IMG/VR virus record: IMGVR_UViG_3300027969_004149
Location: 1-54,289 of that record
From: a virus
Lineage: Duplodnaviria; Caudoviricetes
Reading direction: 5' to 3' (one strand)
DNA length: 54,289 nucleotides
Shown here: positions 3 through 46,181 of the stretch, in pieces
How the letters are laid out: the number at the start of each line of letters is the position of its first letter
Position numbering within the stretch: the stretch's first letter is position 1
The notes under the pieces: model-generated
The model's database searches: none
The model's input: only the letters and a program-made list of their open reading frames with translations
Told to the model about the DNA's origin: nothing
Program-made: the position numbers and the translations under genes

Positions 3-875
3 GAAGTTGTATTTTGGACCAATCCTAATATCGGACTTACTCCACAGGACCCAGAAATAGTAGACTATTGGTGCGAATTGTACCGAACTCATCCTACCTG
101 TCCTAGATTAATACAACCACAATGGTCAAAGAACAAAAAAGAATTAGTATACAGGCTTGTAGAAAAGTTTTTAGATGCAGGAGTGATCAACGAATTTAAA
201 GTAGATCTGCAAGACCTCGACCCAGTGGTGTTGGATTACATAGAAAGACCAGAGATGCCGTGGATTGAGCATAAACCATTATTAGCTGAAATGGTCAACA
301 GATATTACGAAAAATATAATGTACACGACACTGAAGTTCAAATATTTTTTATTTGGGGATTGCCTGGTCAGACTTTCGAAAATATGAAACGAAATATGAT
401 CGAAAGCGGAACTATAGGTGCTAGGGCACATACATTTTTGTTTGAAATATTGCCCAATACTCCGGCAGCAGATCCTAAATATATCCAGAGATTTAATTTA
501 AATATCAAAGAAATTATTATCAAAGGTGACCCAATTACCACAGTTATTTCTAGTTCTACTATGGACATCAAGGAATGGTTGACTGGCACCATAGCCTACT
601 ACCTACATAAAAGCATGGTACAGAAATTCTATTGGAAAAAAGTTATTGGCAGGGAAGCTACTTATTTTAAAAACTTTTATAAATTTCAAAAAGTAATAGA
701 TTCCAGTTATGAGCATTTCTTACAGACCAACGTGGTTCAGATTGTTGATAATGGAAGTCCCTATGATTTCAAAGTATATGTCACTGAAAACTTGGAATAT
801 CTTTATGAACTATTCTACGAAGAAAAACTCAACAACCAACTAACATCAACTGATAATCATTCGTTCTCGCTGTAG
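3..875 (+). CDS. C-terminal part of a cobalamin-dependent-type radical SAM protein (5' truncated by window)
   Basis: Frame is open from position 3 (EVVFWTNPNIGL...). Motifs GLPGQT, EILPNTP and ISSSTMD align by eye with GLPLET, VIPNSEM and SATNTMS of the 38120 B12-radical SAM protein. Confidence 0.7.
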   Translation, partial: EVVFWTNPNIGLTPQDPEIVDYWCELYRTHPTCPRLIQPQWSKNKKELVYRLVEKFLDAGVINEFKVDLQDLDPVVLDYIERPEMPWIEHKPLLAEMVNRYYEKYNVHDTEVQIFFIWGLPGQTFENMKRNMIESGTIGARAHTFLFEILPNTPAADPKYIQRFNLNIKEIIIKGDPITTVISSSTMDIKEWLTGTIAYYLHKSMVQKFYWKKVIGREATYFKNFYKFQKVIDSSYEHFLQTNVVQIVDNGSPYDFKVYVTENLEYLYELFYEEKLNNQLTSTDNHSFSL

Positions 876-940
876 TTCAATGGATAGAACAAGACACTCC
901 TAAGGTCAAGATCTCAGTTCGATCCTGGGCAGCGAGACCA
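866..940 (+). tRNA. tRNA-Arg(CCT)
   Basis: Acceptor CTCGCTG/CAGCGAG, D arm GTTC/GAAC with A20, loop CT-CCT-AA, T arm CTCAG-TTCGATC-CTGGG, encoded CCA. Anticodon stem has only 3 canonical pairs. Confidence 0.85.
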
Positions 941-945
941 TAGAG

Positions 946-951
946 TAAATA
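946..951 (+). promoter_or_regulatory. TAAATA late-type promoter motif
   Basis: 7 nt before ATG 959 with no Shine-Dalgarno; the same motif recurs at operon heads. Confidence 0.55.
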
Positions 952-958
952 CTAGGCT

Positions 959-1552
959 ATGTTAAAAGAACACTTGTTGCCATCAAAATTTGAAAATTTT
1001 ATAAGAGCATGGACCATCGACGATTGTTCTATCTGTGACGAAATCATAGATTACTTTTATCAAAATGAAAAAACCGAGGGCGGGCTAATGACTGCTACCG
1101 GACGTGTTGAAGTCAACAAAGAGTACAAAGACTCTGTGGATTGTTCTTTTGATGCGTCAACGGATCTCGGTAAACGATATATCGGTGAACAGTTACGGTC
1201 AGTGACTGACGAATATGTAAAAAGTTTTCCGGCAGTCAATGATTACAGCAGATGGGGTGTGGTTGAACCTGTTCATATAAAATTCTATCAGCCCGGTGCA
1301 GGATATCATGCATTTCATACCGAACGTAGTTCTGCAACCTATCCTATAAACAACAGACATCTTGTTTTTATGACCTATCTAAATGATGTGTCTGACAGCG
1401 GTGAGACTGAATTTTTACATCAAGGAATTAAAATCAAACCTCAAAAAGGGCTAACAGTGATTTGGCCAGCAGACTGGACTTACACTCACCGAGGCATAAC
1501 CAGCTTGACACAAAACAAATATATTATAACAGGATGGTATAGTTTTTTTTAA
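959..1552 (+). CDS. 2OG-Fe(II) oxygenase (prolyl 4-hydroxylase-like)
   Basis: FHTE, MTYLNDV..GETEF, WPADWTYTHRG, KYIITGW. Confidence 0.85.
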   Translation: MLKEHLLPSKFENFIRAWTIDDCSICDEIIDYFYQNEKTEGGLMTATGRVEVNKEYKDSVDCSFDASTDLGKRYIGEQLRSVTDEYVKSFPAVNDYSRWGVVEPVHIKFYQPGAGYHAFHTERSSATYPINNRHLVFMTYLNDVSDSGETEFLHQGIKIKPQKGLTVIWPADWTYTHRGITSLTQNKYIITGWYSFF

Positions 1553-1556
1553 TCAT

Positions 1557-2183
1557 ATGACTAATACAAACAAATTTTCAATATTACCGCTATTTCCGAC
1601 CACCCTTGGTGCTGTGACTGTATCTGAAGATTTCAGCAATCTTGAAAAGATCAAAGAGTTTGCATACACTGACATTACCAGTGATGAAAGTTTTAATTCT
1701 TTTAAAACTGAAGACAATCAATTACTATCAAATTTTCCAAAAGAAAAAGAAATACTGCTGTCATATTTTAATAATTTTAAAAATGATATTCTAGCATTGA
1801 ACGACAACGAATTTGCTATTTCGTCATCCTGGGCCACCCGTGTAGGACAGAATGGATTTTGTCAGCTACACGATCATAAGAATTCTTTTTACAGCGGTGT
1901 ATTATATCTTGACAGCGTTAATGCTGGCGGTGACATCTTATTTCAAAATCCACTCACAACAGGATCCTTTTTAGTAAATCCGGTAGAATGGAATACATTT
2001 AATTTCGAAACATATCAACTGACACCCGAAAAGAATCTATTAATTTTATTTCCAAGCTATCTGAAACATAGAATCAACAAATACCTCGGTGCTGAATTTC
2101 GATATTCGATAGCATTTAATATTGTGCCTATCGGTAAGTTTGGAAGGGGTGATTCGATAGTCAACTATCAATTAATCGAATAA
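1557..2183 (+). CDS. 2OG-Fe(II) oxygenase (TIGR02466/PF13759-like)
   Basis: LHDHKNSFYSGVLY, LFPSYLKH, RYSIAFN. Confidence 0.85.
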   Translation: MTNTNKFSILPLFPTTLGAVTVSEDFSNLEKIKEFAYTDITSDESFNSFKTEDNQLLSNFPKEKEILLSYFNNFKNDILALNDNEFAISSSWATRVGQNGFCQLHDHKNSFYSGVLYLDSVNAGGDILFQNPLTTGSFLVNPVEWNTFNFETYQLTPEKNLLILFPSYLKHRINKYLGAEFRYSIAFNIVPIGKFGRGDSIVNYQLIE

Positions 2184-2851
2184 TGATCACACCTTACGCC
2201 ACAGAAGAATTATTAGAGATTAATGATTCCTGCAATCCGTATTTTGTTAATGGGGTTGTGGTTGTAGATGATGTCTATAAAAACTATGAAAAATTACACA
2301 GTATGTTACAAAACATGCCTGTGTCGAGATGGAAGACATCAAGCAGCAGTAAAAATTTTACAGAGTATTACGATTGTAGAGCTACTCTAGCGTCCCCGTT
2401 TGTTGAAAAAGAAAACACAGCTATCATAAAATTAATCAAACATCTTATTAAAGAATACTTCGATCAAGATAACACTACTCTTGAAAAAGAAAGTTCAATT
2501 TTAGATTTTGGATTTTATAAGAATATCAAAAAAGATGTTCCTAAATTTTTACAACATTTCCCTCACAAGGAAACATCATTTAATTGTTTAATATACATAG
2601 ACAAAATTTGTTCAGGTGGTACAGCGTTGTTCGATATCGATGATCATATCACTAATCAAGAACATGTACATGTGTTGTGTGATATCTCAATGTATCCGAT
2701 AGAATTAATTAGAGCCAAACCAAATCGTCTAGTTATATTTCCGGGTAACAGGTATCATGGAGCATTTATAGAAGATCACAATCTATATGTCGACCATTGG
2801 AGAATTGTACAACTAATGTTTTTTAACAATAACAAAATTGATAATGTTTGA
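2183..2851 (+). CDS. 2OG-Fe(II) oxygenase-like protein (DUF6445-like)
   Basis: FPHKE, GGTALF, PNRLVIFPGNRYHG, WR. Confidence 0.65.
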   Translation: MITPYATEELLEINDSCNPYFVNGVVVVDDVYKNYEKLHSMLQNMPVSRWKTSSSSKNFTEYYDCRATLASPFVEKENTAIIKLIKHLIKEYFDQDNTTLEKESSILDFGFYKNIKKDVPKFLQHFPHKETSFNCLIYIDKICSGGTALFDIDDHITNQEHVHVLCDISMYPIELIRAKPNRLVIFPGNRYHGAFIEDHNLYVDHWRIVQLMFFNNNKIDNV

Positions 2852-3416
2852 TAACTTCAAATTTATGCCAGATTCAAATAAAATCCTAGTAGGAACAATG
2901 CCTAATGAAATTTTTTTAGAGATATCTGAATTTGTCAAGCATTGTAGAAAAGTCAAAGATCATCCCTTAGGCAGTCTTCGAAATCATTTAAATGGCGGAG
3001 AAAATAGTTATCAAATATCAATTCCAAAACCGTTGATAGAAGAATCTTTTTTATTTCCGTATCTAATTAAATTAGGTGAACATTTTTTGAGACTACAAGG
3101 CATAGAAATCGGTGAGGAAAAAAGAAAGGTGAGATTGAGATCAACTCATAATCATTTTGATGGGTACGATTGCTGGATCAATTTTACAAATAAAAATGAC
3201 AATAATCCCTTTCATACACATCTAGGTAGTTTATCTGGAGTAATTTATTATTCCAATCAAGATAACTGTCCTACTATCTTTGAGGGCGATGTTAAATATT
3301 TCGGTAAAGAGCAAGAAATTGTAATCTTTCCTTCTACGTTAAAACATTGTGTTGAAACACATGTCAGCGACAATGAACGAATTACTTTGAGTTTTAATTT
3401 AGATTATACAGGATGA
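2844..3416 (+). CDS. 2OG-Fe(II) oxygenase (PF13759-like)
   Basis: FHTHLGSLSGVIY, IFPSTLKHCV, RITLSFN. Confidence 0.8.
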   Translation: MFDNFKFMPDSNKILVGTMPNEIFLEISEFVKHCRKVKDHPLGSLRNHLNGGENSYQISIPKPLIEESFLFPYLIKLGEHFLRLQGIEIGEEKRKVRLRSTHNHFDGYDCWINFTNKNDNNPFHTHLGSLSGVIYYSNQDNCPTIFEGDVKYFGKEQEIVIFPSTLKHCVETHVSDNERITLSFNLDYTG

Positions 3417-3418
3417 AC

Positions 3419-3492
3419 GCGGGGTTAGTTTAATGGCAAAACAGCAGATTTCCAATCTTCGGTCGAGAGTTCGATTCTCTCACTCCGCTCCA
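3419..3492 (+). tRNA. tRNA-Gly(TCC)
   Basis: GCGGGGT/ACTCCGC acceptor, loop TT-TCC-AA, GAGAG-TTCGATT-CTCTC T arm, T73, CCA. Confidence 0.95.
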
Positions 3493-3500
3493 AGGACACT

Positions 3501-4076
3501 ATGCAGGTAGTAGATCAAACACAGCTTGTTCGCAAATTCAACTTCAGAAGTGTTATCACTGAGCAAGATGATGCTGTGGCCTGCAACATTATCAAGGGCA
3601 TTATTGCTGACGGCAATTACTTTACCAACAGTCCCAAGTTTCAAACCAAAGAAAATATTTTTGCTAGACCAGAACCTGTATGGCTGAAATATCGTATGAG
3701 CTTTATGTTCAGCCTATTCATGTATCTGGGCCGCGAAGTCAAAGTATCCGACATGATGGCTTGGAGTTTTATGACCAATCTCCAGGGTGCCGAAGATCGT
3801 GAAAAACTATGGCACAATCATTGGCATCCAAAAAATCCCAATAGTAAAATGTTCAGCGGCATATACTACCTGCATATTCCCGATGATGTCAAAGATCGAG
3901 ATTACTGTGGCACGGAGATAGCACCAAATGGTGCAGAGCAGGATGGTAAGTATTTCATCACCCCCACGCCAGGTCATTGGATCATATATCCCAGTGAAAC
4001 GTGGCATCGTCCGGGTATCGTACAAAGCAATCAATATCGATTTATATTGGCAGCAGACATAGAAGTGAATGTCTAA
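3501..4076 (+). CDS. 2OG-Fe(II) oxygenase-like protein
   Basis: WHNH, FSGIYYL, IIYPSETWHRP, RFILAAD. Confidence 0.7.
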   Translation: MQVVDQTQLVRKFNFRSVITEQDDAVACNIIKGIIADGNYFTNSPKFQTKENIFARPEPVWLKYRMSFMFSLFMYLGREVKVSDMMAWSFMTNLQGAEDREKLWHNHWHPKNPNSKMFSGIYYLHIPDDVKDRDYCGTEIAPNGAEQDGKYFITPTPGHWIIYPSETWHRPGIVQSNQYRFILAADIEVNV

Positions 4077-4764
4077 TGTTTTGATAATCGGTGACAGCTG
4101 GGGAGTTCCAAATTACCCATCATCGTACCACGGAGATTTCGAACGTGTTCACATAGGTGATCCTCCCGAAATACACATTGAATTTTTACTTCGAAATCTC
4201 GGACACACAGTAGTCAATTGTTCAATTAATGCCAAGGGGAATTTAACCAGTATCTTAAAAGGCATTGAGCATGTTCGATCAAATCCAGTGGATTGGATCG
4301 TTTGGTTCCATACTGAAATGCTACGTGATTCTTATCTAAATGGGCTAAACAAAACCTATTATAAAATCAGTGAGTTACAAGAATCGATTTCGGAAATAGT
4401 ATATAAAAAATTTCAAGAACTAAAACAAATCAGCGGTGCTAGATCTATTGTGATCGGCGGTCAGGCTCCGGTATTAGATAGTTTTTATAAGTACACCTCG
4501 GCAGACCATGTCAAGCAAGATTGGCGCGGAGAGATTTTAAATCGCGAATTTCCAATAGTGCATTCAATATGCTCTCTTGATCTTTTAGACAGTCCCTATT
4601 GTACAGATACCATAGAAGACAAATTGAGGCTGCTAGATCAGCATAAAATTATTTTAGATGCAATGTCCGAATCCTCTGACTTTCCGGATCGATGTCACCC
4701 CGGTCAGCGGCCCCATGCAGAATTGTGTGTATGGTTAGAAAAAATTATTGGCTCCTATAGTTAA
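4069..4764 (+). CDS. SGNH/GDSL hydrolase-like protein
   Basis: N-terminal IIGDSW and C-terminal DRCHP. Confidence 0.65.
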   Translation: MSNVLIIGDSWGVPNYPSSYHGDFERVHIGDPPEIHIEFLLRNLGHTVVNCSINAKGNLTSILKGIEHVRSNPVDWIVWFHTEMLRDSYLNGLNKTYYKISELQESISEIVYKKFQELKQISGARSIVIGGQAPVLDSFYKYTSADHVKQDWRGEILNREFPIVHSICSLDLLDSPYCTDTIEDKLRLLDQHKIILDAMSESSDFPDRCHPGQRPHAELCVWLEKIIGSYS

Positions 4765-7697: not shown

Positions 7698-7726
7698 AAA
7701 ATAGCACCTTCGGGTGCTATTTTTTT
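7698..7726 (+). terminator. intrinsic terminator (potentially bidirectional)
   Basis: AAAATAGCACC-TTCG-GGTGCTATTTTTTT. Confidence 0.9.
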
Positions 7727-7790
7727 GACTCTGCGTTCTGATATCAGCGGCATAAATATATATGGTAGAACAATTCCAGGAGTTATAGAT

Positions 7791-9185
7791 ATGCCGTTAC
7801 AGATTCGCAGAGGCACCGACGCAGAAAGATTAGCAATGACACAGCCGCTAGCACAGGGCGAGCTGTTATTTGTTTCAACCCCAGGGGCTGAAAGATTATA
7901 CATCGGGAATGGTACAACATTAGGTGGTGTTCAAATCACCGGGTATACCAACGAAGATGCACAAGATGCCGCAGCTCAACTTTTCAGCAGCGGCACACAC
8001 ACCGGAATTACCTTTACATACAATGACGTAGCAGCCAGTATATCAGCTGTGGTCGATTTAGCTAATTATCAAGGCACCATAGGAGCAACTTCTTTTAAAG
8101 GATCTATTGTAGCTGACGATTCTACTTTATTAGTTGACGGAATTTCTGGAAGAATTGTTGGCCCAGTGTTTTCCAATGTTGTTGGCAATGTTACGGGAAC
8201 CTTAACTGGTAATGTTGTAGGTAATATTACCGGAGTAATAACAGGTACTGCAGGATCAACTATTACAGGTACGCTAACTGGAAGTTTATTAGGCACCAGT
8301 AGTGGACTGCATACCGGTGATGTAAAAGGTTCGATTTTCGGCGATGATTCTTCAATCATGGTGGACGTTATTGATAGAAGTGTATCTGCTAAAACAATAA
8401 TAGTTACAGATACTCTAGGTGGAGCTACTACGCACACTATTCAAGGAAATATCAACGACCTGTTTATAGGTACCGCAGCCAGTCCTACTTCAGTATTCAT
8501 GAATCTGGACACATCTCAAGAAGGTCTAATGCTAAGAGGTGTAACCACAGGAGGTGCTGGAGATCAACCGGTGCTGTCTTTTAGAGCTGCCAGAGGATCT
8601 ATAGCTTCTCCTACTATTGTTCAAGATTTAGATTCATTAGGATTAATAAGTTTCGACGGATGGACCGGTAACACAGGTACCCCTACTGGACACGCGAAAG
8701 CATCATTTATTGGTTCGTCTGTAGACGATCTATCAATTGTATCAGGTGATGCTACGATCGCTGCAACATTAGTTATGGGAAGTTATGCTGATACTGGCAC
8801 AGATGATTTATTTTATATGTTCAAAGGCGGAACCTTTTCAGCTTCTGCAATTGGATATCGCACAGGGTTTGGTGGAACAGTTACTCAAGGTACCAACAAG
8901 GCCACAGGTGTTACATTAAATAAAATCTGCGGACAGATAACACTCAATGCTGCATTGCTGGCTGCTAACACTACTGTTACGTTTACGCTAACCAACAGCA
9001 AAATAACTGCCGAGGATCATATATTAGTAACACATGTCAGCGGAGGAACACTAGGCGCATATGGAGTTGGTGGAATAGTTCCAGCGGCCGGCAGTGCTAC
9101 TCTCTACGTGAGAAATCTAACCAGCGGTGGGTTAAGCGAGGCTATTGTTTTAAAATATACTGTATTTTTAAGTGCTAATTCGTAA
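7791..9185 (+). CDS. virion fibre/structural protein
   Basis: AGGAG RBS and TAAATA at 7753. Mtd_N-like start LQIRRGT..GEL..LYIGNG, G-x-x-T repeats, two GS.x.DDS..VD repeats, Gly/Thr rich. Confidence 0.7.
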   Translation: MPLQIRRGTDAERLAMTQPLAQGELLFVSTPGAERLYIGNGTTLGGVQITGYTNEDAQDAAAQLFSSGTHTGITFTYNDVAASISAVVDLANYQGTIGATSFKGSIVADDSTLLVDGISGRIVGPVFSNVVGNVTGTLTGNVVGNITGVITGTAGSTITGTLTGSLLGTSSGLHTGDVKGSIFGDDSSIMVDVIDRSVSAKTIIVTDTLGGATTHTIQGNINDLFIGTAASPTSVFMNLDTSQEGLMLRGVTTGGAGDQPVLSFRAARGSIASPTIVQDLDSLGLISFDGWTGNTGTPTGHAKASFIGSSVDDLSIVSGDATIAATLVMGSYADTGTDDLFYMFKGGTFSASAIGYRTGFGGTVTQGTNKATGVTLNKICGQITLNAALLAANTTVTFTLTNSKITAEDHILVTHVSGGTLGAYGVGGIVPAAGSATLYVRNLTSGGLSEAIVLKYTVFLSANS

Positions 9186-26930: not shown

Positions 26931-26955
26931 GAAACCACTCTCCGATAAATATTTT

Positions 26956-29057: not shown

Positions 29058-29058
29058 T

Positions 29059-35253: not shown

Positions 35254-35753
35254 TCTAATTTCAAACAGGTCAGTTCTAATACAGTATATCCTTGAGAATT
35301 CTCTATTGTGCTGACAGCAAACTCGGCCCATTTAAAAAAAGTTTGATCATCATTTTCATGAACACCAGTTTTAAGTAACGTCAATGAAGGATATCGATGT
35401 CTCATAAGACATTGCCAATGAGCAGTTTCTAATTTTCTTTTATTATCAAGATTTTCTGATGTTTTGTCTAAGAATAAAGTGTTAATGGAACTAATGTTTA
35501 CGATACGTTTGTTAGGTGTACCTTCCCAAATATTCCAAACATCATTGAGTAAATTAATCTGATCGAAAGATGTATTTACAAATGTGTCACAATCAATTAT
35601 TGCCTTTACTGCATTCTTTCTTTGCTCTGAATCAGAGAGGTCGAATCCCGTAGCACGTGAGATGCCCACTATCGAATAACCTAAATTAGAATATGCGGCA
35701 GACATGGCTCGACCGACTGGGCCAAGATGGGCAGTGATAGCTACTGTTTTCAT
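35250..35753 (-). CDS. short SDR-like Rossmann-fold protein
   Basis: VAITAHLGPVGRA, GISRATGFDL, IVNISS; canonical YxxxK not evident. Confidence 0.6.
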   Translation of the reverse strand: MKTVAITAHLGPVGRAMSAAYSNLGYSIVGISRATGFDLSDSEQRKNAVKAIIDCDTFVNTSFDQINLLNDVWNIWEGTPNKRIVNISSINTLFLDKTSENLDNKRKLETAHWQCLMRHRYPSLTLLKTGVHENDDQTFFKWAEFAVSTIENSQGYTVLELTCLKLD

Positions 35754-38119: not shown

Positions 38120-40045
38120 ATGAAAAAAGTCTATTTAATACAGGCAGAGATTACTTCTGGCCCGTCCAATGAACACTATCTGCCGTTTTCAGTAGGCTGC
38201 ATATGGGCGTATGCTAACCAGTTCAGTGATATTCAAAGCAATTTTATGTTGGCGGATGTGATTTGGAAACGTGAGGGACAGCAAGATGTGTTGGATAAAA
38301 TAAAAGATCCTGACATAATAGGCTTTAGTACCTATGTTTGGAATCACAATTGGAATCTTACGTTAGCTAAAAAAATCAAACAACGATGGCCTGATTGTTT
38401 GATAGTGTTCGGAGGCCCTAGTATTAATGAAAGTTGGCTGACACATGATTTTATAGACGTTGCTATGTTCGGCGAAGGTGAAATGGCGTGGGCAGATCTT
38501 TTAAGAAAGTATATCAACAAGGAACCAATCGACCGCTATTGGAATAATCCTAGACAACAGGATATAGCAGAATTTCCTAGTCCGTATACTGCAGGATTTT
38601 TTGACAAAATTATAAAAGAAAATCCAGATATCAGCTGGTATATGATGATCGAAACCAATCGAGGGTGTCCTTATCACTGCACATTCTGCGGATGGGGTGC
38701 AGATTATCTTAATAAATTAAAAACGTTTAACCTAGAAAGAACCAAGGAAGAAATGGATTGGGCAGTGACTAACAACATTCATTGGTTGTTTGTTATTGAT
38801 CCGAACGCAGGCATATTAAAAGAACGTGACGTTGAGATCGCATGGATGGCTAGACGTGCTATTGAGGATCCCGTGAGTAAAATTCGTAGAGTCACATTCA
38901 ATCATGCCAAGAATCTCAATGAAGCCTGTTTTGAAATAGAAAAAATAATACAAAAATGGACCTATGGATTAGAAATGGCTGTGCAAAGTATGAACGTGCC
39001 TACTCTAGAAGCCAGCAAACGAAATAACATGGGAATGAATAATCTAGAACGTGCCTATGCGCTGTGTCAAAAGCATGGTATAAGATACTATACCGAATTG
39101 GTGTTAGGACTTCCTTTAGAAACTAAAGAAACATTTATCAACGGACTGTTCACTATCATGAAACTAGGACAACACGATTCAGTGAAGACCTATCCCTGTA
39201 CAGTTATTCCTAATTCAGAAATGGCCAGTGAAGAATATCAAACCCGCTACGGGATAAAATTAATACATCCACGAGACATGTACAGATCTAAAGAAGAAAG
39301 AATATGGGATGAGGAAGATCAAAGCTGGGAAGACATCGCTATGGTTAGTGCTACAAATACTATGAGCAGTCAAGATATGGCAGATACATTATCTTATCAT
39401 TGGATGTTGGCACAGTTTCATTATTCTGGTGTCACTCAGTTAACTTCTAAATATCTATATCACATGCATAACATAGAATATAGAGATTTTTATGACCGAC
39501 TATACCAATATCTCAAACAAGATACACTAGGCAAAGCATTAATAGATTCTGTTGAAGAAATCTTGACAAATTATTTTATACATGGTGAAGTTCCCAATGA
39601 AGAGCGATATCATAATGTGGTTGCATTGACTCTGCCCGAAACATATAAATTAAACTATATCGTAGAAAACAAGAAACATTTTATCAACTTGGGCTTTGCT
39701 GTAGGAGAAAGTTTTAGAGAAATAGAACCCAGTATTGTAGACTTACAAACAGCATTGATGAAAGACGATAGTCAAACTTATCCTCACAAGATCTATTCTA
39801 TCATAGACATCGATAGATGGGTCTATGAATTCAGCGAGTACGAGATACACAAACATGACCCAGTAAGTCATATGCATGATCAAATGTATACCAAGTTTCT
39901 TATGAAAACTGATATTGTTAACATTAATAATCCATACCAACACCAAGACGTTGAGGATACGTATGATGGTAATAAAATTGCTGCACACGCAACTATTCCT
40001 ATTATCCCTATTGCCAGCACAACAGCAGACGGAAGAATTTTATGA
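38120..40045 (+). CDS. cobalamin-binding radical SAM protein
   Basis: N-terminal B12-binding-type domain (GFSTYVWN, VFGGP, GEGE); ETNRGCPYHCTFC; LGLPLET. Confidence 0.9.
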   Translation: MKKVYLIQAEITSGPSNEHYLPFSVGCIWAYANQFSDIQSNFMLADVIWKREGQQDVLDKIKDPDIIGFSTYVWNHNWNLTLAKKIKQRWPDCLIVFGGPSINESWLTHDFIDVAMFGEGEMAWADLLRKYINKEPIDRYWNNPRQQDIAEFPSPYTAGFFDKIIKENPDISWYMMIETNRGCPYHCTFCGWGADYLNKLKTFNLERTKEEMDWAVTNNIHWLFVIDPNAGILKERDVEIAWMARRAIEDPVSKIRRVTFNHAKNLNEACFEIEKIIQKWTYGLEMAVQSMNVPTLEASKRNNMGMNNLERAYALCQKHGIRYYTELVLGLPLETKETFINGLFTIMKLGQHDSVKTYPCTVIPNSEMASEEYQTRYGIKLIHPRDMYRSKEERIWDEEDQSWEDIAMVSATNTMSSQDMADTLSYHWMLAQFHYSGVTQLTSKYLYHMHNIEYRDFYDRLYQYLKQDTLGKALIDSVEEILTNYFIHGEVPNEERYHNVVALTLPETYKLNYIVENKKHFINLGFAVGESFREIEPSIVDLQTALMKDDSQTYPHKIYSIIDIDRWVYEFSEYEIHKHDPVSHMHDQMYTKFLMKTDIVNINNPYQHQDVEDTYDGNKIAAHATIPIIPIASTTADGRIL

Positions 40046-41211
40046 ACTTAATTGGCTTTAATAATTCTAACATAAACAGAATGTTAGAATCTATTGCAGG
40101 AAAGCATCTACTGCCCACTGTGTCTCTGTGTCATCATTGCCATAGACATATTCCAGCATGGCGATATGAGAAAGACAACAAAGTTTACATGGTAAAGAGT
40201 TGTGCTATTCACGGCATCAGCCATCACCTAATCGAAAATGATTATGAGTTCTACTCGGGGCTATACTATACACAAGATAATCCCAAATACAATATGAACG
40301 GTGGAGTGCTTATAGAAGGCAGCGATAGATGCAATCTAGAATGTCCTCACTGTTATCATTTGCCAGACAATGACGTCAAGGATCCTTCTATTGAAGAATT
40401 GGTTAGACAAGTACTAACTATGCCATTAGGTGATCCAGACGGCGTTCATCGTATTATACTTGCTGGTGCAGAGAGTACTCTCAGACGAGATTTTCCAGAA
40501 ACTGTGGCTGCTATACGAGGACTGCACCCGGATGTTCATGTCAGTGTACTAACCAACGGTATCAGATTCAACGACAGCGATTTCTGTAGACGCAGCGTAG
40601 AAGCCGGATTGCATGCTGCCAACATAGGACTAAATCATCCTGACTACATTAACAATGAAACTGTGAGAAGAAAACAAATTACTGCCATAGAAAACATGAT
40701 GAAGGAAGATGTTTCTGTAGGATATATTGGATACACTATGGTGGGATTCCACGAACTAGATTATATACTAAATGAAATTTGGACTAATGGTTGGACTCCC
40801 AAAACTTTCAGGATCAGACTAGGAGCCGAGATTGGTAGAAATGCCACTACTGAAGTCTCTACAGTTAGTGATTTATATAAAGCTGTTGAGCAATGGTGCC
40901 TTGTTCGAGAAATACCTTTTAGTAGAATCATCGAAGCAGACAACAACATATACCATGTGATGGTCGAAATGGGGGATAAATGTTTGCGATTGATCAACTG
41001 GTGTGATGAAACCAACATTGACATGGAAGAATTGCGGAGTGGTCCGTGGTGCAATTTTGTGCCTGACGGGATTACAAATTTTCTACATCAGGTCATCCGC
41101 CGAGACATATGGAAAAACAAAAGTATACCATTACCCGATGCACCGCCTCAGCGATATTTGTTAGCCAGACATCCTACAAAAGATCCTCTGGATCTTCTTA
41201 ATCTACTTTAG
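40042..41211 (+). CDS. radical SAM protein, MJ0619/Tes-like N-terminal metal domain
   Basis: SLCHHC..IPA..VYMVKSCAIHG; RCNLECPHCY; LTNG. Confidence 0.85.
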   Translation: MNLIGFNNSNINRMLESIAGKHLLPTVSLCHHCHRHIPAWRYEKDNKVYMVKSCAIHGISHHLIENDYEFYSGLYYTQDNPKYNMNGGVLIEGSDRCNLECPHCYHLPDNDVKDPSIEELVRQVLTMPLGDPDGVHRIILAGAESTLRRDFPETVAAIRGLHPDVHVSVLTNGIRFNDSDFCRRSVEAGLHAANIGLNHPDYINNETVRRKQITAIENMMKEDVSVGYIGYTMVGFHELDYILNEIWTNGWTPKTFRIRLGAEIGRNATTEVSTVSDLYKAVEQWCLVREIPFSRIIEADNNIYHVMVEMGDKCLRLINWCDETNIDMEELRSGPWCNFVPDGITNFLHQVIRRDIWKNKSIPLPDAPPQRYLLARHPTKDPLDLLNLL

Positions 41212-41802
41212 TTGCTTGCCGATTATCATAAATCGAGTATACAAAGGCAATTCAAGTTCACCTGCCCAATATATTTCTTCTAAATGGCATTGTTCTTTAA
41301 ACTGTTCTAGAGTGTTGGCAGTACGAACGTGTTCCGGAATATCATAGTTGTTGCTTTGTAGTATCAATAAACTACTATAAGGCATACCACTTAACCATAG
41401 ATCGTATTGGTCTTGTGTGATATGTTCACAGCTGGTATTGATAACAACGTCGGCATCGCTGCGTATTTCACACATGTCTGCGGTAACTGCATGAAACTTT
41501 CCTACCATTTCTTCAATCTTGTTCATGTTGATGGCAATAGGTTTGCAGATAGGATCAATGTCAATGCTACGAATGTTAAGTATTGGAACGTCGCTTTGAA
41601 ATAGCATACTGGCTAACACACCGACCCATCCACCGTGAATGTCCACTGTAACAAATTTCTTTACATGGGTACGAAGATTTGTAATCAACCACTCTTTACT
41701 TGTAAGCTGACCTGACCAGAATGCATCCATGGTTCGCATGGGATCTGGACTTTGGCGGATAGCCTGCATCCAATGATGTAAATGTTCAGTGTTTATTTGC
41801 AT
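41203..41802 (-). CDS. class I methyltransferase-like protein
   Basis: IHGGWVGVLA, SIDID, DM, VVINTSCEH. Confidence 0.7.
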   Translation of the reverse strand: MQINTEHLHHWMQAIRQSPDPMRTMDAFWSGQLTSKEWLITNLRTHVKKFVTVDIHGGWVGVLASMLFQSDVPILNIRSIDIDPICKPIAINMNKIEEMVGKFHAVTADMCEIRSDADVVINTSCEHITQDQYDLWLSGMPYSSLLILQSNNYDIPEHVRTANTLEQFKEQCHLEEIYWAGELELPLYTRFMIIGKQLK

Positions 41803-42773
41803 TTGGGTATTTTGCTATCTGCTGAACTTACACAACTTTCTGTAACACACGATCGAGATTGAGAAAATAATTTAAAACCCTCGGTTAAGGTTCCTAATGG
41901 TGCATCATGACAACTATAGCTTCGTTTTACTTCATCACCTCTTATTATAACACTTTGATAACCAGCATTGCAATTCCAATCTTTAAATTTATTAAAACCA
42001 AATGCATTAAATCGTTCTGCTTGATCAAACAGATATTCCTTTCCATCTACATCATACAAGGCTATTTGATAAGTGTCTTCACCATTTGCACGTTGCGGAA
42101 ATCCTGTTTGCATTTTATTAATCATGTCATCGGTGTATCCATCGACAATCGAACTAGCTGTAGGATCGCTTTGAGGTTTAAGTGTTACATTGATTCCGCG
42201 AGCATGAAAACGTTCCATTCGAGCATACAGTTCGTCAAATTTTGCTGGCACCATTACTTGATTAATAGTAACGTGTACTAGTTCATATTGTAACTGTAAA
42301 CACTTGTCGCCAAATTCTTGTTCTTTGGCAAACTCATCATGAAAACTGGCAGTAATACTTCTGCGTTGCAACAATGCAGTATTGGCACACCACGTGTTCC
42401 ACCATTTGCTACCTGGACTTAGGTTGGTGGTCATATGTACACTCTGATACTCAGATTCCAATTCGTCTAGATGCTTTACCAAGTCTGGTAATTGTTTATA
42501 AGCAGTTGGCTCACCTCCGCTGAACGACCAATGAAACTGGTTAAACCCATTAGCTCGTGCTTGACGCTTAATCTCGTCTACTGTAGATTTATATACTTCA
42601 AGCGGTTGGTGATCTATTCGGTCACTGCGAGCATAGGGCCAGCAGTATGAACAGTTATAATTACAGAAGCGGCCCAAGATCCAACTGGTAGAAAACAATG
42701 GGCGATGCAACATAGTACGCTGTCCAAATCTTACTATGCGGTCAAAAGGTATCTTGGTGAAGTCGTGCGTCAT
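41793..42773 (-). CDS. radical SAM protein with C-terminal SPASM-like domain
   Basis: CNYNCSYC, FSGGEP, MTTN; CNAG..SC..C..C; TATTTA at 42784 upstream. Confidence 0.9.
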   Translation of the reverse strand: MTHDFTKIPFDRIVRFGQRTMLHRPLFSTSWILGRFCNYNCSYCWPYARSDRIDHQPLEVYKSTVDEIKRQARANGFNQFHWSFSGGEPTAYKQLPDLVKHLDELESEYQSVHMTTNLSPGSKWWNTWCANTALLQRRSITASFHDEFAKEQEFGDKCLQLQYELVHVTINQVMVPAKFDELYARMERFHARGINVTLKPQSDPTASSIVDGYTDDMINKMQTGFPQRANGEDTYQIALYDVDGKEYLFDQAERFNAFGFNKFKDWNCNAGYQSVIIRGDEVKRSYSCHDAPLGTLTEGFKLFSQSRSCVTESCVSSADSKIPKCK

Positions 42774-43185: not shown

Positions 43186-43636
43186 CTACAACTCGGACAC
43201 CGTGACCATAGATAGCAGCTATGGTGCGGTGCCTTATGAAACTATCATAGGCGGCAGTATGGGAACTGATACCATCACACTCAATAACACTCTGTGGTCT
43301 GGCGGATCAATAACATCACCTTACATCTACACTACTAACGTGACTAGTGGGGCTGGTACATATAATTGGAATAATACCTCATTGACCAACGGTAGTAGCA
43401 CCGTTCACATCGATGCAGACGGCCTTACTATGAAGGAAGGTGCTGATATCAAAATTGGCGGTAAGAGTCTAACCAAAGCCATAGAGCACATTGAAGAACG
43501 GTTGGGTATTCTAAATCCCAATCCGGCACTAGAAGATCGTTGGGAGCAGTTAAAAGAACTGCGTCAGCAATATGTAGAGATGGAACGAGATCTTCTCGAA
43601 AAAGAGAAGTTGATGAAGATTTTAAAGGAAGCATAA
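43154..43636 (+). CDS. hypothetical protein
   Basis: S/T/G-rich N-terminus, coiled-coil-like C-terminus. Confidence 0.65.
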   Translation: MPAKKQKQQPNYNSDTVTIDSSYGAVPYETIIGGSMGTDTITLNNTLWSGGSITSPYIYTTNVTSGAGTYNWNNTSLTNGSSTVHIDADGLTMKEGADIKIGGKSLTKAIEHIEERLGILNPNPALEDRWEQLKELRQQYVEMERDLLEKEKLMKILKEA

Positions 43637-44301
43637 TGAATGTTCGATTACTCAGCTATAGTCAACCCACCCAGGAATTTGCAGACCTTGGCATCGCAGA
43701 TGCACAGGAACTCATTGCGTATTGCGCCCGTGTCAGCAATCCCTCCAATCAACTCAACACAGACACATCAGAAAAACTTATCAGATACTTGGTCAAACAC
43801 CAACACTGGTCACCACTCGAAATGGTCTCTGCCTGTATCGAAATCACTACAACTAGAGATATTGCTAGACAAATCTTGCGTCACCGAAGTTTCAGTTTCC
43901 AAGAATTTTCTCAACGCTATGCTGATCCAACGAAAGATCTCAATTTTGTTACAAGAGAAGCTAGACTTCAAGACCCCAAGAACAGACAGAACAGTGTCGA
44001 AGTTGATGATCAACTGTTACAAAATGAATGGTACCGTGCTCAACAACGAGTCATCTATGCTGCCAAACGAGAATATGAATGGGCTATTGCTAACGGCATA
44101 GCTAAGGAGCAGGCCCGTGCTGTATTGCCCGAAGGACTTACAGAAAGCAGATTATATATGAACGGTACATTACGTAGTTGGGTACATTTTATTGAACTGC
44201 GTTCAACAAACGGCACACAGAAAGAACATCAAGAAGTTGCTGTTGCCTGCGCTAAAGTTATTGCAGAAATATTTCCTATGACTACGGATTTGACAGGATG
44301 A
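43636..44301 (+). CDS. thyX: flavin-dependent thymidylate synthase
   Basis: ARVSN, HWSPLE, RQILRHRSFSFQEFSQRY, EQARAVLP. Confidence 0.95.
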   Translation: MNVRLLSYSQPTQEFADLGIADAQELIAYCARVSNPSNQLNTDTSEKLIRYLVKHQHWSPLEMVSACIEITTTRDIARQILRHRSFSFQEFSQRYADPTKDLNFVTREARLQDPKNRQNSVEVDDQLLQNEWYRAQQRVIYAAKREYEWAIANGIAKEQARAVLPEGLTESRLYMNGTLRSWVHFIELRSTNGTQKEHQEVAVACAKVIAEIFPMTTDLTG

Positions 44302-44531
44302 GCACTTTAGAGAAATTAAAAATTATTGTTGAAAAAGAATCTGCTCGTTCATTAGAAGATGATGAAATTAGTAGTACTTGGGAAGAACTAGATTTAGATA
44401 GTCTCTCTATGATTTCAGTTTTGCGAGATGTAGAGGACGAATTCAAAATTGTTCTTGAATACAATATATTCAAAGATCATAAAATTACCTGTATCAATGA
44501 TTTTTCGGAATACATAGATAAAAAATTATGA
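44298..44531 (+). CDS. acyl carrier protein
   Basis: 77 aa, acidic; LDLDSLSM phosphopantetheine site; VEDEFKI. Confidence 0.85.
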   Translation: MSTLEKLKIIVEKESARSLEDDEISSTWEELDLDSLSMISVLRDVEDEFKIVLEYNIFKDHKITCINDFSEYIDKKL

Positions 44532-45346
44532 TTGAAAAATTTATTGTATTTGGTTCTTGTCATACAGCCGGAGTTGAATTGTGGTCTGATAAAACCATTC
44601 CCGACTATTCAAATATGGATCCGTTAATTGCCGCAGTTAGATCAGATCCTAGAGTTTATATTGATCATATTCAAAATGGTAAATTTAACAAAGATATTCC
44701 TGAACAGATAGAATATGAAACAAATAATTCGTGGGTTAACGCATTAAGAGATCATTTTCCTAATACTGAAGTTATCAATACTTCAGTGGCGCAGAGTAAT
44801 TTGAAGAATTTCTTAAAAGCATCAACCTATTTTTTACAAAATCAAATTGATAAAACATCAACCTGTATTATTATAGAAATAACTGAGCCTACTGGAATTA
44901 CTGTGTGTCAAGACAACATGTTAAAATATGGTAGCAAACAACACTTAGGGTTTTATTTTGATGAACACCAGGCCGAGTTGATGAATTCGTATCTCGACTC
45001 TTATGAGAGTGCAAGATACAGAGCTTACCTAGATATAGTTTTTCTTTATAATTTAATTGGCAATCTAAGAAATCAAGGATACAATGCTCAATACTTCATG
45101 TGGAACCGAACTCCTTGGACTCGGTTGTTGAGTAGCACTGATCCAATCAAGATGTTTCAACCACAAAGCAATGACACCGACATGTTTGATAAATTGTTTC
45201 ATGAATTTTTACAAAATTCTCTAATCACTGTCGAACAGGAAACTGAAATAAAACAAATTCCCTTGTTGCCGCATGGACATATGCGACTTGAGGCACACGC
45301 ATTATTAGGTAAATTTATCAGTAAACGAATTATGGAGATAGTATGA
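44528..45346 (+). CDS. SGNH-like protein
   Basis: VFGSCHTAG, SW, N, C-terminal HGH. Confidence 0.5.
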   Translation: MIEKFIVFGSCHTAGVELWSDKTIPDYSNMDPLIAAVRSDPRVYIDHIQNGKFNKDIPEQIEYETNNSWVNALRDHFPNTEVINTSVAQSNLKNFLKASTYFLQNQIDKTSTCIIIEITEPTGITVCQDNMLKYGSKQHLGFYFDEHQAELMNSYLDSYESARYRAYLDIVFLYNLIGNLRNQGYNAQYFMWNRTPWTRLLSSTDPIKMFQPQSNDTDMFDKLFHEFLQNSLITVEQETEIKQIPLLPHGHMRLEAHALLGKFISKRIMEIV

Positions 45347-45885
45347 AGCTATGGTCGTATTTTGATGTACCGAATTGGGAAGATATGAGAGATCGTATCA
45401 ACCAAAGGTGGGCCGACGAATATCCCAGAATGAAGATGCTAAATTATTTCCCTAATCATGTAATATACGAAACTGTTCCAGATTTAAAAGATTGGTTAGA
45501 TTCTCAAGGCATAACAGTGTCCGGGTTTGGCATTTTTATTTTTCAATACAATACCACCGATAGCAAAGTGCATGTGGATATTGGAAATCCCACAAACTAT
45601 AGATTTAATATTCCATTAATGAATACCGATACCAGCCATACTGAGTTTTTTGAAACTGTTTGGGATAAAGGTGTAGACATTCAGAATTTAGATGCCACAG
45701 AAGATTCACCGGTTAGGGAATGGGAGTACGGCGACGAGGGCACACTGCTCGACGGGTTTGTATTAAACCAACCGGCTATATTACACGTGAGAGTACCTCA
45801 CAGAGTTAGAGTCACCGAAAACAAACCAAGAATTTGTTTGACTGCTTGTCCGATTTCCGACAGTCAATTGTTGAGATTTTTATGA
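45343..45885 (+). CDS. 2OG-Fe(II) oxygenase-like protein
   Basis: VHVD, RFNIPL, VPHRV..PR; resembles the 26331 protein. Confidence 0.65.
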   Translation: MKLWSYFDVPNWEDMRDRINQRWADEYPRMKMLNYFPNHVIYETVPDLKDWLDSQGITVSGFGIFIFQYNTTDSKVHVDIGNPTNYRFNIPLMNTDTSHTEFFETVWDKGVDIQNLDATEDSPVREWEYGDEGTLLDGFVLNQPAILHVRVPHRVRVTENKPRICLTACPISDSQLLRFL

Positions 45886-46181
45886 TAGGCATTGATATTA
45901 CTGCGATTAAGAGATTTAAAAAATCCACTGAATCGTTAGCAACAAAAATATTAACCCCAGACGAGATGTTAGAATATAATGCGGTGAAAAATAAAGCAAA
46001 TTATCTAGCAGGAAGATGGGCTTGTAAGGAATCTGTATTCAAAGCTACAGGCCTAACTAATGTAACAGTATTATCGGATCCTAACGGTAAACCATACGTT
46101 AAAGATCATCGAGATATCATGGTCAGCATAAGTCACGATCAGTCTTATGCAGTAGCAATGGCTGTTCAAAAAAACGTTTAA
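45882..46181 (+). CDS. acpS: holo-ACP synthase (4'-phosphopantetheinyl transferase)
   Basis: IGIDI, LAGRWACKESVFKA, GKP, VSISHD..YAVA. Confidence 0.9.
   Translation: MIGIDITAIKRFKKSTESLATKILTPDEMLEYNAVKNKANYLAGRWACKESVFKATGLTNVTVLSDPNGKPYVKDHRDIMVSISHDQSYAVAMAVQKNV

Follow-up and report, generated by a model that had tools for sequence, protein, structure and literature searches.

Glycosylation machineries encoded by viruses themselves include A64R of the chlorovirus PBCV-1, which acts in capsid glycosylation, and R699 and L230 of Mimivirus, which act in fibril glycosylation. Maturation of proteusins such as polytheonamide combines a radical S-adenosylmethionine (SAM) epimerase, B12-type radical SAM (rSAM) C-methyltransferases, an Fe/2-oxoglutarate (2OG) hydroxylase and an N-methyltransferase. 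For phage DNA, the accessible text of two papers describes thymidine hypermodification and 7-deazaguanine systems (PMC8989533, PMC5889632), and for T4-like cyanomyoviruses the accessible text of another reports one to five 2OG-Fe(II) oxygenases of unknown role per genome, described as numerous in 14 of 16 genomes (Sullivan et al. 2010, PMC3037559). Here we analysed a 54,289-nt stretch of viral DNA, IMG/VR record IMGVR_UViG_3300027969_004149 (the window), for which a cluster of tailoring enzymes had been predicted. From a six-frame list, 70 open reading frames (ORFs) were chosen and each was scanned against Pfam (E<=0.01); they are named by their start positions, with (-) for the reverse strand. 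The centre of the locus is an island of 34 kb (9.2-42.8 kb) between the fibre gene 7725 and gene 43154, in which ~35 of ~45 genes encode rSAM proteins, oxygenases or group-transfer enzymes. None of the compared systems joins ~10 rSAMs with ~20 oxygenases in one syntenic island.

As far as the accessible text on cyanomyoviruses goes, these are likewise T4-type myoviruses with several small PF13759- or PF13640-type oxygenase ORFs in variable regions. However, they carry one to five oxygenases and no rSAM block, whereas 19-22 oxygenases and 10 rSAMs were found here, and the relatives' capsid gene puts the window phage in a different, GAP32/PA5oct-type jumbo group. The chlorovirus and Mimivirus machineries also consist of virus-encoded transferases and tailoring enzymes for a surface glycoconjugate, which in our case is a proposed one, and the model of the island protein 17016 matches both A64R and R699. 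Yet recognisable glycosyltransferases and nucleotide-sugar enzymes abound in those machineries, which show no rSAM expansion, while the window island holds one GT-A-like fold only, the remainder being oxidative and radical tailoring. Proteusin maturation uses the same enzyme classes to place dozens of modifications on one polymer without a scaffold synthase. Phage DNA hypermodification, according to the accessible text on it, is multi-enzyme tailoring that includes rSAM, pyridoxal-phosphate and PP-loop enzymes as well, but it involves a handful of enzymes as compared to ~45 in the island.

The window record is a virus fragment with a CheckV completeness of 15%, so that the full genome would measure ~350-360 kb. 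Neither a capsid nor a terminase gene was found among the 70 ORFs (Pfam), and when 45.3 kb of the window was compared by megablast with 50,697 deposited phage records, no match and thus no near relative emerged. With two rSAM proteins of the window as queries, 13 and 73 related viral loci were recovered. The five longest related records (G001-G005; 110-201 kb, 31-57% complete) contain 8-13 rSAM matches each, and in two of the five a gp23-type capsid gene lies on the same contig as the island (PF07068, E 6e-99 in G001 and 2e-96 in G002). By tblastn, the relatives' capsid gene is 71% identical to that of Sinorhizobium phage Phosso and Vibrio phage 2.275.O, 69% to that of Serratia phage BF, Cronobacter phage GAP32 and Pectobacterium phage CBB, and 67.5% to that of PA5oct. 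The window, tied to the relatives by collinear flanks, stems from the ~350-kb genome of a freshwater jumbo myovirus, which through the relatives' capsid gene is assigned to the T4-type (Straboviridae-like) jumbo myoviruses of the GAP32/PA5oct group. The expected phage context is also present in the window itself, with ThyX, three tRNAs and two fibre genes. A cyanophage origin was considered and dropped, as the capsid gene and gene 48777 indicate the GAP32/PA5oct-type group: ORF 48777-50012 encodes a conserved hypothetical protein with 34% identity to proteins of PA5oct-type Pseudomonas jumbo phages. Weaker matches of 48777 were to Caulobacter Cr30, Ochrobactrum vB_OspM_OC and Synechococcus BUCT-ZZ01 phages, with Stenotrophomonas and Sinorhizobium phages in the tally.

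Independent assemblies are collinear with the window over 9.8-43 kb at 83-96% nucleotide identity (~92% in two long blocks), and near-identical DNA occurs in 20 DNA runs that belong to 16 studies with a freshwater or lake label; two of these runs may be the source of the record. No RNA run was among the listed carriers of the stretch, which says nothing on expression. Homologs of 23190 form 4,101 clusters at E<=1e-10, one of them, with 73% identity to 23190, on a 373-kb contig (P0098). Together these findings verified that the window represents a real and abundant uncultivated jumbo-phage lineage. The accessible part of a preprint (10.64898/2026.06.18.733297) describes large freshwater amoC phages whose genome size and GC content resemble those of the window's phage; a search for amoC in 23 relatives gave no match, but the controls were equally silent, hence the search was uninformative and establishes no link to amoC phages.

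The island ORFs are densely packed and frequently overlap. For each of the five large relatives, the island region was searched for ORFs, which were compared with HMMs of the window families, and each relative proved to hold 7-13 ORFs with a CxxxCxxC motif in one block. In G002, G003 and G005, ~17 families follow an identical order at 30-70% protein identity. This order starts with the 16394 cupin, 17016, a 188-aa unknown protein, 12466, the 40042 rSAM and 14376; it continues with three or four 26956-type cupins, 15147, a second 12466-like gene, 15689, 18224 and 18909, and it ends with the 21394 and 22267 rSAMs, a 13148/23190-type rSAM, 24484, 41203 and 41793. The same families are rearranged in G001 and G004. 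Both flanks of the island in G005 are collinear with the window, upstream with a 3501-like gene, a phosphatase, a metallophosphatase and fibre 7725, and downstream with 43154, 46185, 46648, 47676, 48016, 48777, 50055, 51167 and the PTPS, KdsA and GT8-like genes. The island therefore occupies a fixed site, at which it measures 24 kb in G005 and 34 kb here.

Conservation was further assessed in 88 loci, which were selected for a homolog of 18909 or 38120, many of which end at contig ends and in which paralogs cross-match. In this set, homologs were counted for 41793 in 85 loci, for 24484 and 41203 in 73 each, for 15689 in 61, for 14376 in 45, for 18224 and 40042 in 38 each, and for 17016 in 32; the median identity of 41203 and 41793 across loci was 67-70%. 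Around this core, the window carries extras, namely 20161 and 20730 (only 1 of 88 loci), the cupin array of 25.6-31.7 kb with a nitroreductase and an SGNH-like gene, the stretch 31853-34145 with a methyltransferase, an oxygenase and a fibre paralog, and a sub-block of 34.8-40 kb (34828, an SDR-like ORF, the amidinotransferase, the aminotransferase and the B12 rSAM). Homologs of the sub-block genes 35790, 36853 and 38120 were present in 21, 15 and 14 loci, respectively, the loci having been chosen partly for 38120.

Such variation could be taken to mean that there is no common product at all, and that the island is a hyperplastic zone collecting independently useful auxiliary genes for 2OG consumption, repair, or lipid and nucleotide metabolism. 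The differing content (7-13 rSAM ORFs, varying cupin counts), the strand switches, the lineage-specific insertions of 20161 and 20730, and the separation of the outlying modules from the island by unrelated genes would all fit this idea, as would the precedent, in the accessible text on cyanomyoviruses (PMC3037559), of several role-unknown 2OG oxygenases in 14 of 16 genomes. Nevertheless, the tight and often overlapping packing of the ORFs, the ~17 families that hold their order at 30-70% identity in three relatives, and a four-gene sub-module that also stays together in Bdellovibrionales chromosomes (see below) speak against it; synteny conservation of this kind is unexpected for unrelated genes, and we consider the idea improbable. 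The conserved order, the fixed site beside a fibre gene and the invariant catalytic residues show that the island is not the result of random accretion. Thus, the homologs are not randomly scattered but co-occur in conserved order at the same genomic site, and the catalytic residues have not been lost but are invariant across homologs. The original prediction had drawn one mega-cluster from position 3 to 46,181. Its tailoring content is borne out by the Pfam, NCBIfam, structure and conservation data, but it is not a single unit, since the conserved island is confined to 9.2-42.8 kb and two outlying modules (0.9-4.1 kb and 44.3-46.2 kb, the latter with ACP and AcpS) are separated from it by ordinary phage genes.

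A CxxxCxxC motif was found in 9 of the 70 ORFs, and all nine matched PF04055, in eight cases above the gathering score; ORF 38120 matched PF04055 at 18 bits and, in addition, the B12-binding domain PF02310 at 37.9 bits. According to NCBIfam, three of the nine belong to the N-terminal-twitch family NF033640, with scores of 304.5 bits for 13148 (13148..14383, +; motif CNLKCRMC), 337.2 bits for 18909 (18909..20222, +) and 407.1 bits for 23190(-), well above the cut-off of 170 bits. Their residues C7, C25, C83 and C86 are invariant and were seen in 41 of 41 homologs. ORF 23190 lies next to the rSAM 24484 on the reverse strand (23190..25566, -). Three short rSAM paralogs, 21394(+) and 22267(-) (21394..23193, both strands; PF04055) and 41793(-), display three conserved C-terminal cysteines in the case of the former two. 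ORF 41793 forms the most conserved core pair together with 41203, a methyltransferase-like SAM-fold ORF (41203..42773, -) with a GxGxG-type motif, presumably methyltransferase motif I, and with Methyltransf_31, PCMT and NAS as leads in the ESM Atlas. The core family of 40042 (40042..41211, +) combines PF04055 (59.9 bits) with an HMPTM-type N-terminal zinc ribbon (PF23545, 51 bits), and 38120 (38120..40045, +) is a B12-binding rSAM of the KedN5-like C-methyltransferase type (NF033712, 157.6 bits). Throughout these families CxxxCxxC is kept in 39-41 of 41 homologs, or 12 of 12 for the 38120 family, and the auxiliary cysteines are conserved as well.

The predicted number of ten rSAMs thus stands for nine complete proteins, while the tenth is represented only by a C-terminal part and is probable. 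This is the 5'-open ORF 3..875 (+), which matched neither Pfam nor PHROGs; its residues 4-231 align to positions 245-449 of the 624 positions of the NF033712 profile (57.3 bits). It would be the C-terminal part of a B12-type (KedN5-like) rSAM, with the Cys motif falling outside the window. As the cut-off of NF033712 is 700 bits, 38120 and 3-875 are to be regarded as B12-rSAM class proteins and not as members of the KedN5 family. Weak and partial matches to QueE were observed for the short rSAMs. Matches of the rSAMs to maturases of peptides synthesised on ribosomes and modified post-translationally (RiPPs) were all far under the cut-offs and cover the shared rSAM core only.

The second large group of enzymes consists of cupin-type 2OG-Fe(II) oxygenases. 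Eleven of the 70 ORFs match PF13640, PF13759, PF05118 or PF20043, nine of them at or above the gathering score, and five further cupins, 15147(-), 27648, 28163, 29059 and 30345, are blastp paralogs of 26956 (30-42% identity). ORF 11205 was linked to 16394 by hhalign (98%), and the AlphaFold2 (AF2) model of 14376 (pLDDT 89) has a 2OG-oxygenase fold with 186 Foldseek matches at E<=1e-3, headed by proline hydroxylases, PHD2 and ALKBH5. A profile search of 14376 against PDB sequences gave chance-level GNAT matches only, and the structure model took precedence. ORF 15689(-) matches the solved 2OG hydroxylase Cpz10 (7v4f; E 7e-19), a nucleoside-antibiotic tailoring hydroxylase according to the accessible text on it (PMC9814697). 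Altogether 19 oxygenases are supported and another three, 11831, 26331 and 45343, are possible, which agrees with the ~22 that had been predicted.

Within the island, these genes comprise the Asp_Arg_Hydrox-like 11205 and the possible oxygenase 11831 (11205..12469, +; hhalign 98% and 49%; H117-x-D119...H171 in 11831), the core family 14376 (14376..15173, +; H177-x-D179...H234 invariant), the two core families of cupin paralog 15147 and the Cpz10-like beta-hydroxylase 15689 (15147..16354, -), the core cupin 16394 of the Asp/Asn beta-hydroxylase family (16394..17053, +; PF05118, 43.3 bits), two Asp_Arg_Hydrox cupins, 20161 and 20730 (20161..21401, +; 31.5 and 36.3 bits), and the array of blastp paralogs 26956, 27648, 28163, 29059 and 30345 with the possible 26331 (26331..30926, +). 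Further along lie the PF13759 oxygenase 32491 (within 31853..33096, -) and the sub-threshold PF13640 oxygenase 34230 (within 34230..35753). The H-x-D/E...H triad is present in 14 ORFs, and a double-stranded beta-helix was modelled for 14376 only. The triad was found as H-x-D...H in 41 of 41 sequences of the 26956-type families, 15689 and 14376, and in 30 of 30, 13 of 14 and 15 of 15 sequences for 16394, 11205 and 11831. In five of the 19, namely 1557, 2183, 2838, 3501 and 32491(-), H-x-H...H...R replaces it; these PF13759/DUF6445 ORFs may have a three-His metal site and are putative oxygenases. Conservation of the metal triads and Cys motifs, from 13 of 14 up to 41 of 41 sequences, argues for enzymes that presumably work and are held under purifying selection. 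Among the relatives, the G001 island (L169 17464-18555) encodes a dioxygenase of the TauD/TfdA family (59 bits) for which the window has no counterpart, a further instance of turnover among oxygenase-type genes.

What these enzymes might act on was approached through the two-domain core protein 17016 (17016..18248, +; AF2 model pLDDT 91). In the predicted model, residues ~17-234 adopt a GT-A or nucleotide-diphospho-sugar transferase fold and residues ~230-392 a class I methyltransferase fold, the latter with VIA Z ~9 to EgtD and NodS. The best Foldseek matches were the collagen-glycosylating proteins LH3 and COLGALT1 and Mimivirus R699 (E 2e-5 to R699 and LH3). VIA Z scores of ~10 were obtained to STIV A197, the GT domain of LH3 and PBCV-1 A64R (9.6-9.9 for A64R), and of ~9 to Mimivirus R699, GlmU and KdsB. 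No Pfam domain was detected in 17016 or in 120 listed homologs. Other pointers to sugars are the kinship of the amidinotransferase to StrB1, which acts on inosamine-phosphate, and to HsvA, the resemblance of 15689 to Cpz10 and, weakly, of 9168 to carbohydrate sulfotransferases, and the Kdo-8-P synthase and weak GT8-like ORF located 9 kb downstream of the island. Genes for NAD-dependent epimerases/dehydratases occur in 13 of 23 related records, one of them adjoining the G004 island, and a KdsB-like gene occurs in 1 of the 23. The fold of 17016, the kin of the amidinotransferase, 18224, 12466, KdsA, the epimerases and the GT2 neighbours of cellular homologs lead us to favour a sugar-derived substrate.

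We therefore tentatively propose that the enzymes of the island form one system, which tailors a glycoconjugate derived from a sugar or nucleotide sugar and located on the virion or the infected cell; we regard this reading as quite possible although somewhat short of probable. The GT-A-fold protein 17016 would use or transfer a nucleotide-activated unit, which the twitch-type and short rSAMs would oxidise, epimerise or deoxygenate. The B12- and HMPTM-type rSAMs, together with the SAM methyltransferases, might C-, N- or O-methylate the sugar unit, and the 2OG hydroxylases might hydroxylate it. Amidino and amino groups would be added by the PP-loop ATPase, the amidinotransferase and the aminotransferase, and sulfate and acyl decorations by the sulfotransferase- and SGNH-like proteins and the ACP/AcpS/desaturase set. 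The finished product would sit on the outside of the virion, on its fibres or capsid, or on the envelope of the infected cell, where the variable paralog content among relatives could diversify surface chemistry. The idea of a viral biosynthetic or hypermodification system, as put forward in the original prediction, is supported, and the new evidence narrows the substrate modestly towards a sugar- or nucleotide-sugar-derived product.

Several observations weigh against a sugar substrate. The GT-A call for 17016 comes from a predicted model with middling Z scores, no invariant DxD is seen in the homolog alignment, and GT-A-like folds also include nucleotidyltransferases that are not glycosyltransferases (Z ~9). 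GT2 was above the cut-off in none of the five largest relatives, the window has only the weak GT8 match outside the island, and Wzx/Wzy-type, nucleotidyl-transferase and DegT-type families were unmatched among the 70 ORFs. The aminotransferase is of class III, which is not the usual class for sugars, and cupins of the Asp/Asn-hydroxylase type and twitch/SPASM rSAMs are at least as typical of protein or peptide substrates. Moreover, GT2 accounts for only 7 of 140 neighbour ORFs of cellular homologs, whose contexts are heterogeneous (146 families among 140 ORFs). Because of the lack of GT2 in the five relatives and of Wzx/Wzy or NTP-transferase families in the window, the island, judged by its genes, does not look like a classical surface-polysaccharide (O-antigen- or capsule-like) locus; a sugar-tailoring role would be compatible with this.

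The best structural matches of 17016, LH3, COLGALT1 and R699, could equally be read in terms of virion-protein hypermodification. In this case the rSAMs (by epimerisation, C-methylation or cross-linking), cupins and methyltransferases would act post-translationally on the Gly/Val/Thr/Asn-rich fibres (7725 and 33093) or on other structural proteins. Parallels would be the maturation of proteusins, or hydroxylation of the collagen type with subsequent glycosylation, and the effect would be to make the receptor-binding surface harder or more diverse. Indeed, PF05118 is the Asp/Asn beta-hydroxylase family, the model of 14376 matches prolyl hydroxylases, a kinase-like-fold protein belongs to the core, and the rSAMs have weak partial matches to many RiPP maturases. 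The fibre protein 7725 (7725..9185, +), which has an Mtd_N N-terminal domain (PF18454, E 3.6e-5) and Gly-rich repeats, is the island's neighbour in the window as well as in three of the five relatives (G001, G004 and G005), and a fibre-like paralog, 33093 (33093..34145, -; blastp 43% to 7725 over 92 residues, E 5e-17), lies inside the island of the window. On the other hand, this paralog was detected in only 4 of 88 related loci, all closest relatives, and no 7725-like gene adjoins the island in the part of G003 that was examined. The RiPP-maturase matches are too far under their cut-offs to single out peptide chemistry, and no obvious protein role can be named for the amidinotransferase, class III aminotransferase, ACP/AcpS or desaturase. 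In contrast to proteusin clusters, the island has no detected precursor gene, nitrile-hydratase-like leader, RiPP recognition element or leader peptidase, the recognition element not having been searched for specifically. Intergenic gaps within 9.2-42.8 kb are <=139 bases, which leaves no room for an unoverlapped precursor gene, in line with the predicted absence of a precursor peptide; a precursor in the remaining ~85% of the genome is possible. On balance, we judge modification of virion proteins to be unlikely.

The group-transfer enzymes include the amidinotransferase 35790 (35790..36872, +). Its best PDB matches are HsvA (1.4e-34), StrB1 (4e-32), and AGAT and SxtG (~1e-28), and comparison with seven solved amidinotransferase sequences (E 1e-34 to 1e-27) places it in this family. 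H214 and C342, which we take to be the catalytic His and Cys of the AGAT/StrB1 family, are invariant in 16 sequences. The adjoining 36853 (36853..38049, -) encodes a class III (omega-)aminotransferase (PF00202, 161.7 bits). These two enzymes bring to mind a diffusible or intracellular small molecule, such as an aminoglycoside-, aminocyclitol- or nucleoside-like compound or a guanidino-polyamine, made during infection as an agent of host takeover or competition, a counter-ion or a counter-defence agent. The closeness of the amidinotransferase to HsvA, StrB1 and SxtG, the Cpz10-like 15689, the KedN5-like B12 rSAM, ACP and AcpS, and the nitroreductase, SDR-like, class III aminotransferase and kinase-like ORFs can all be accommodated in such a scheme, and these enzyme families are common in natural-product pathways. 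It is less easily reconciled with the absence of the amidino/amino/B12 sub-block from most relatives (21, 15 and 14 of 88 loci), and a set of ~20 hydroxylase paralogs is large for the making of one small molecule. No ketosynthase (KS), nonribosomal peptide synthetase (NRPS) domain, cyclitol synthase or terpene synthase was found among the 70 ORFs, and no exporter or self-resistance gene was recognised. A small-molecule product therefore appears to have a low probability. In agreement with the prediction that a scaffold enzyme would be missing, polyketide synthase, NRPS and fatty acid synthase systems are represented by ACP and AcpS only, without KS, acyltransferase, adenylation or condensation domains (Pfam, E<=0.01).

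A further core protein, 18224 (18224..18970, +), is a QueC-like PP-loop ATP pyrophosphatase with an invariant SGGADS motif and invariant C212, C233, C236 and C239, a C-terminal four-Cys site like that of QueC; its QueC-type score is far under the equivalog cut-off. Taken together with the PTPS/QueD-like gene at 51851, the weak partial QueE matches of the short rSAMs, the ThyX gene adjacent to the island and the three tRNA genes of the window, it raises the question of nucleic-acid hypermodification, in which the enzymes would build a modified phage DNA base or modify phage tRNAs. However, the QueE- and QueD-type scores are far under the equivalog cut-offs as well. A TGT/DpdA-type transglycosylase was detected in none of the five largest relatives, which are 31-57% complete so that absence is not proof, and none was found among the 70 ORFs. 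Families for DNA glycosyl- or aminoacyl-transferases, including the amino-acid:DNA transferase, for hydroxymethylases and for DNA kinases were likewise unmatched among the 70 ORFs, which sets the island apart from the phage DNA hypermodification systems. Nucleic acid is accordingly the substrate that we consider very unlikely.

Cellular counterparts of part of the core were identified by using the three N-twitch rSAMs as queries against prokaryote genomes, each species being represented by one. The scan yielded 79 loci, the great majority in Bdellovibrionales or other Bdellovibrionota, in which the best bacterial N-twitch rSAMs share 45-50% identity with 23190. At these loci a 23190-type gene adjoins 24484-type (30-40%), 41793-type (49-53.5%) and 41203-type genes, the bacterial 41203-type domain being located within larger proteins. 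Five bacterial genomes showed 5-32 NF033640 matches, 3-16 of them above the cut-off, whereas none of 14 control genomes had a match above the cut-off. Five bacterial regions examined hold 4-13 CxxxCxxC ORFs per 14-36 kb, with up to 13 in 28 kb, and also carry nitroreductase-, Cpz10-, kinase- and SDR-like genes. Among the 140 ORFs neighbouring the cellular homologs GT2 was the most frequent family, with 7 ORFs of which 3 lie in L102, followed by Asp_Arg_Hydrox (3), QueC (3) and carbamoyltransferase (2). Hence, the phage has that part of its core which consists of rSAMs and the SAM-fold protein in common with rSAM-dense chromosomal clusters in metagenome-assembled genomes (MAGs) of Bdellovibrionales. 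The bacterial clusters differ from the phage island in their varied contexts and in that the 26956-type cupin array, 14376 and 17016 were undetected in the five regions at E<=1e-3.

In a quick tree of 42 N-twitch rSAMs with long branches, phage and bacterial sequences interleave, with clades of 6 phage and 2 bacterial rows (support 98) and of 3 phage and 2 bacterial rows (support 100), and the starred branches require at least three label changes. ORF 23190 is ~48% identical to its bacterial counterpart as compared to 27% to its own paralogs in the window, which implies that the paralogs predate the exchange between phage and bacterium. This link to Bdellovibrionota could point to gene flow or to the host. 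No literature report was found of the Bdellovibrionales MAG clusters (G025-G028).

A more far-reaching view is that these freshwater jumbo phages and predatory Bdellovibrionota share an undescribed 'radical hypermodification factory' without a scaffold synthase, in which a dozen rSAMs and a score of Fe/2OG hydroxylases would rewrite many C-H bonds of one displayed polymer, either a fibre protein or a viral glycan. We consider this doubtful at present. If true, the particle surface would be chemically unique, resistant to proteases and glycosidases, and diversified by gain and loss of paralogs, and the island would be the first virus-encoded system of such chemistry and would open a new way to biopolymers with heavy modification. 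Phages are known for a few tailoring or auxiliary enzymes, and a conserved island with ~35 such genes out of ~45 goes well beyond this. Should there be a single product, a glycoconjugate or protein of a new, heavily modified kind is likely, which would serve adsorption, immunity evasion or host takeover. In any event, the island offers experimental handles in its many rSAM and 2OG paralogs, which are intact yet diverged, among them the uncharacterised N-terminal-twitch rSAM family. No description of the island or of the NF033640 family was found in full-text literature, a search that leaves aside supplements, which could list such genes, and in a review of the QueC family (PMC13329287) the terms 'radical SAM', 'Bdellovibrio' and 'jumbo' do not occur.

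The ACP, AcpS, desaturase, amidinotransferase, aminotransferase and methyltransferases named in the original prediction were each confirmed by profile or PDB-sequence matches, while its sulfotransferase is weakly supported: 9168 (9168..9857, -) reached E 0.005 in Pfam and E 0.26 to heparan-sulfate 2-O-sulfotransferase in the PDB. Its more distant homologs keep a PKTAGTS-type loop and an RNPW motif, which are presumably those of sulfotransferases, whereas the window copy and an 85%-identical relative have PRTGMAMKK with a three-residue insertion instead of PKTAGTS, so that cofactor binding may be altered in the window copy. The membrane fatty-acid desaturase family (PF00487, 70.8 bits) is represented by 9785 (9785..10579, -). 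It is followed by the conserved ORF 10552 (10552..11166, -), for which a weak lead to GNAT (12% of one cluster in the ESM Atlas) was obtained. The small core ORF 12466 (12466..13155, +), often present in two copies in relatives, has a protein-kinase-like fold (TTK kinase in the PDB, E 6e-5). A nitroreductase-family protein (PF00881, 32.3 bits) is encoded at 25657..26331 (+), and ORFs 28659 and 29597 lie among the cupin array (within 26331..30926, +). ORF 30920 (30920..31714, +) has no Pfam match, and 31853 (within 31853..33096, -) is a class I SAM methyltransferase by Pfam. The conserved ORF 34828 and ORF 35250(-), which we take by eye to be SDR-like, are located within 34230..35753. Profile searches against PDB sequences returned nothing significant for 17016, 41203, 18224, 34828 and 10552, hhalign gave no link for 28659, 34828, 10552, 30920 and 4069, and PHROGs had no matches for 10 unannotated ORFs.

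Upstream of the island, the region 0.9-4.1 kb is a separate small 2OG/tRNA module. ARAGORN detected tRNA-Arg(CCT) at 866..940 (+), tRNA-Gly(TCC) at 3419-3492 between small oxygenase ORFs, and tRNA-Thr(GGT) at 4751-4824, 3' of ORF 4069. The module comprises a 2OG-Fe(II) oxygenase (959..1552, +; PF13640, 36.6 bits against a gathering score of 27) with H120-x-E...H177, and four small putative oxygenases, 1557, 2838 and 3501 (PF13759) and 2183 (DUF6445), within 1557..4076 (+). ORF 4069 (4069..4764, +) has an N-terminal GDS-like motif and matched neither Pfam nor PHROGs; together with 29597 and 44528 we presume it to be SGNH-like, by eye, while hhalign of 4069 to these two was negative. Downstream of the island, ThyX is encoded at 43636..44301 (+; PF02511, 153.7 bits). 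The second module (44298..46181, +) consists of the acyl carrier protein ACP (44298-44531, +; PF00550, 26.7 bits), the SGNH-like 44528, the possible cupin 45343, and AcpS (45834-46181, +; PF01648, 49.8 bits). Still further downstream, the PTPS/QueD-like, Kdo-8-phosphate synthase (239.7 bits) and weak GT8-like ORFs (Pfam) lie at 51851..54180 (+), outside the stretch of the predicted cluster. The KdsA protein is 94-100% identical in >100 metagenomic clusters, and these near-identical phage variants saturated the homolog search, which gave no hint of the host; the PTPS-KdsA-GT8-like order is the same in G005.

Between the upstream module and the fibre gene, ORF 4878-5339 has an HExxH motif and a weak match to the putative metallopeptidase family DUF6782 (E 0.0096). 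It is followed by tandem dual-specificity (Cys-based) phosphatase paralogs at 5555-6004 and 6024-6584, which are 64% identical, and by a calcineurin-like metallophosphoesterase at 7058-7648; homologs of the phosphatases and the metallophosphoesterase are found at the same place in G005.

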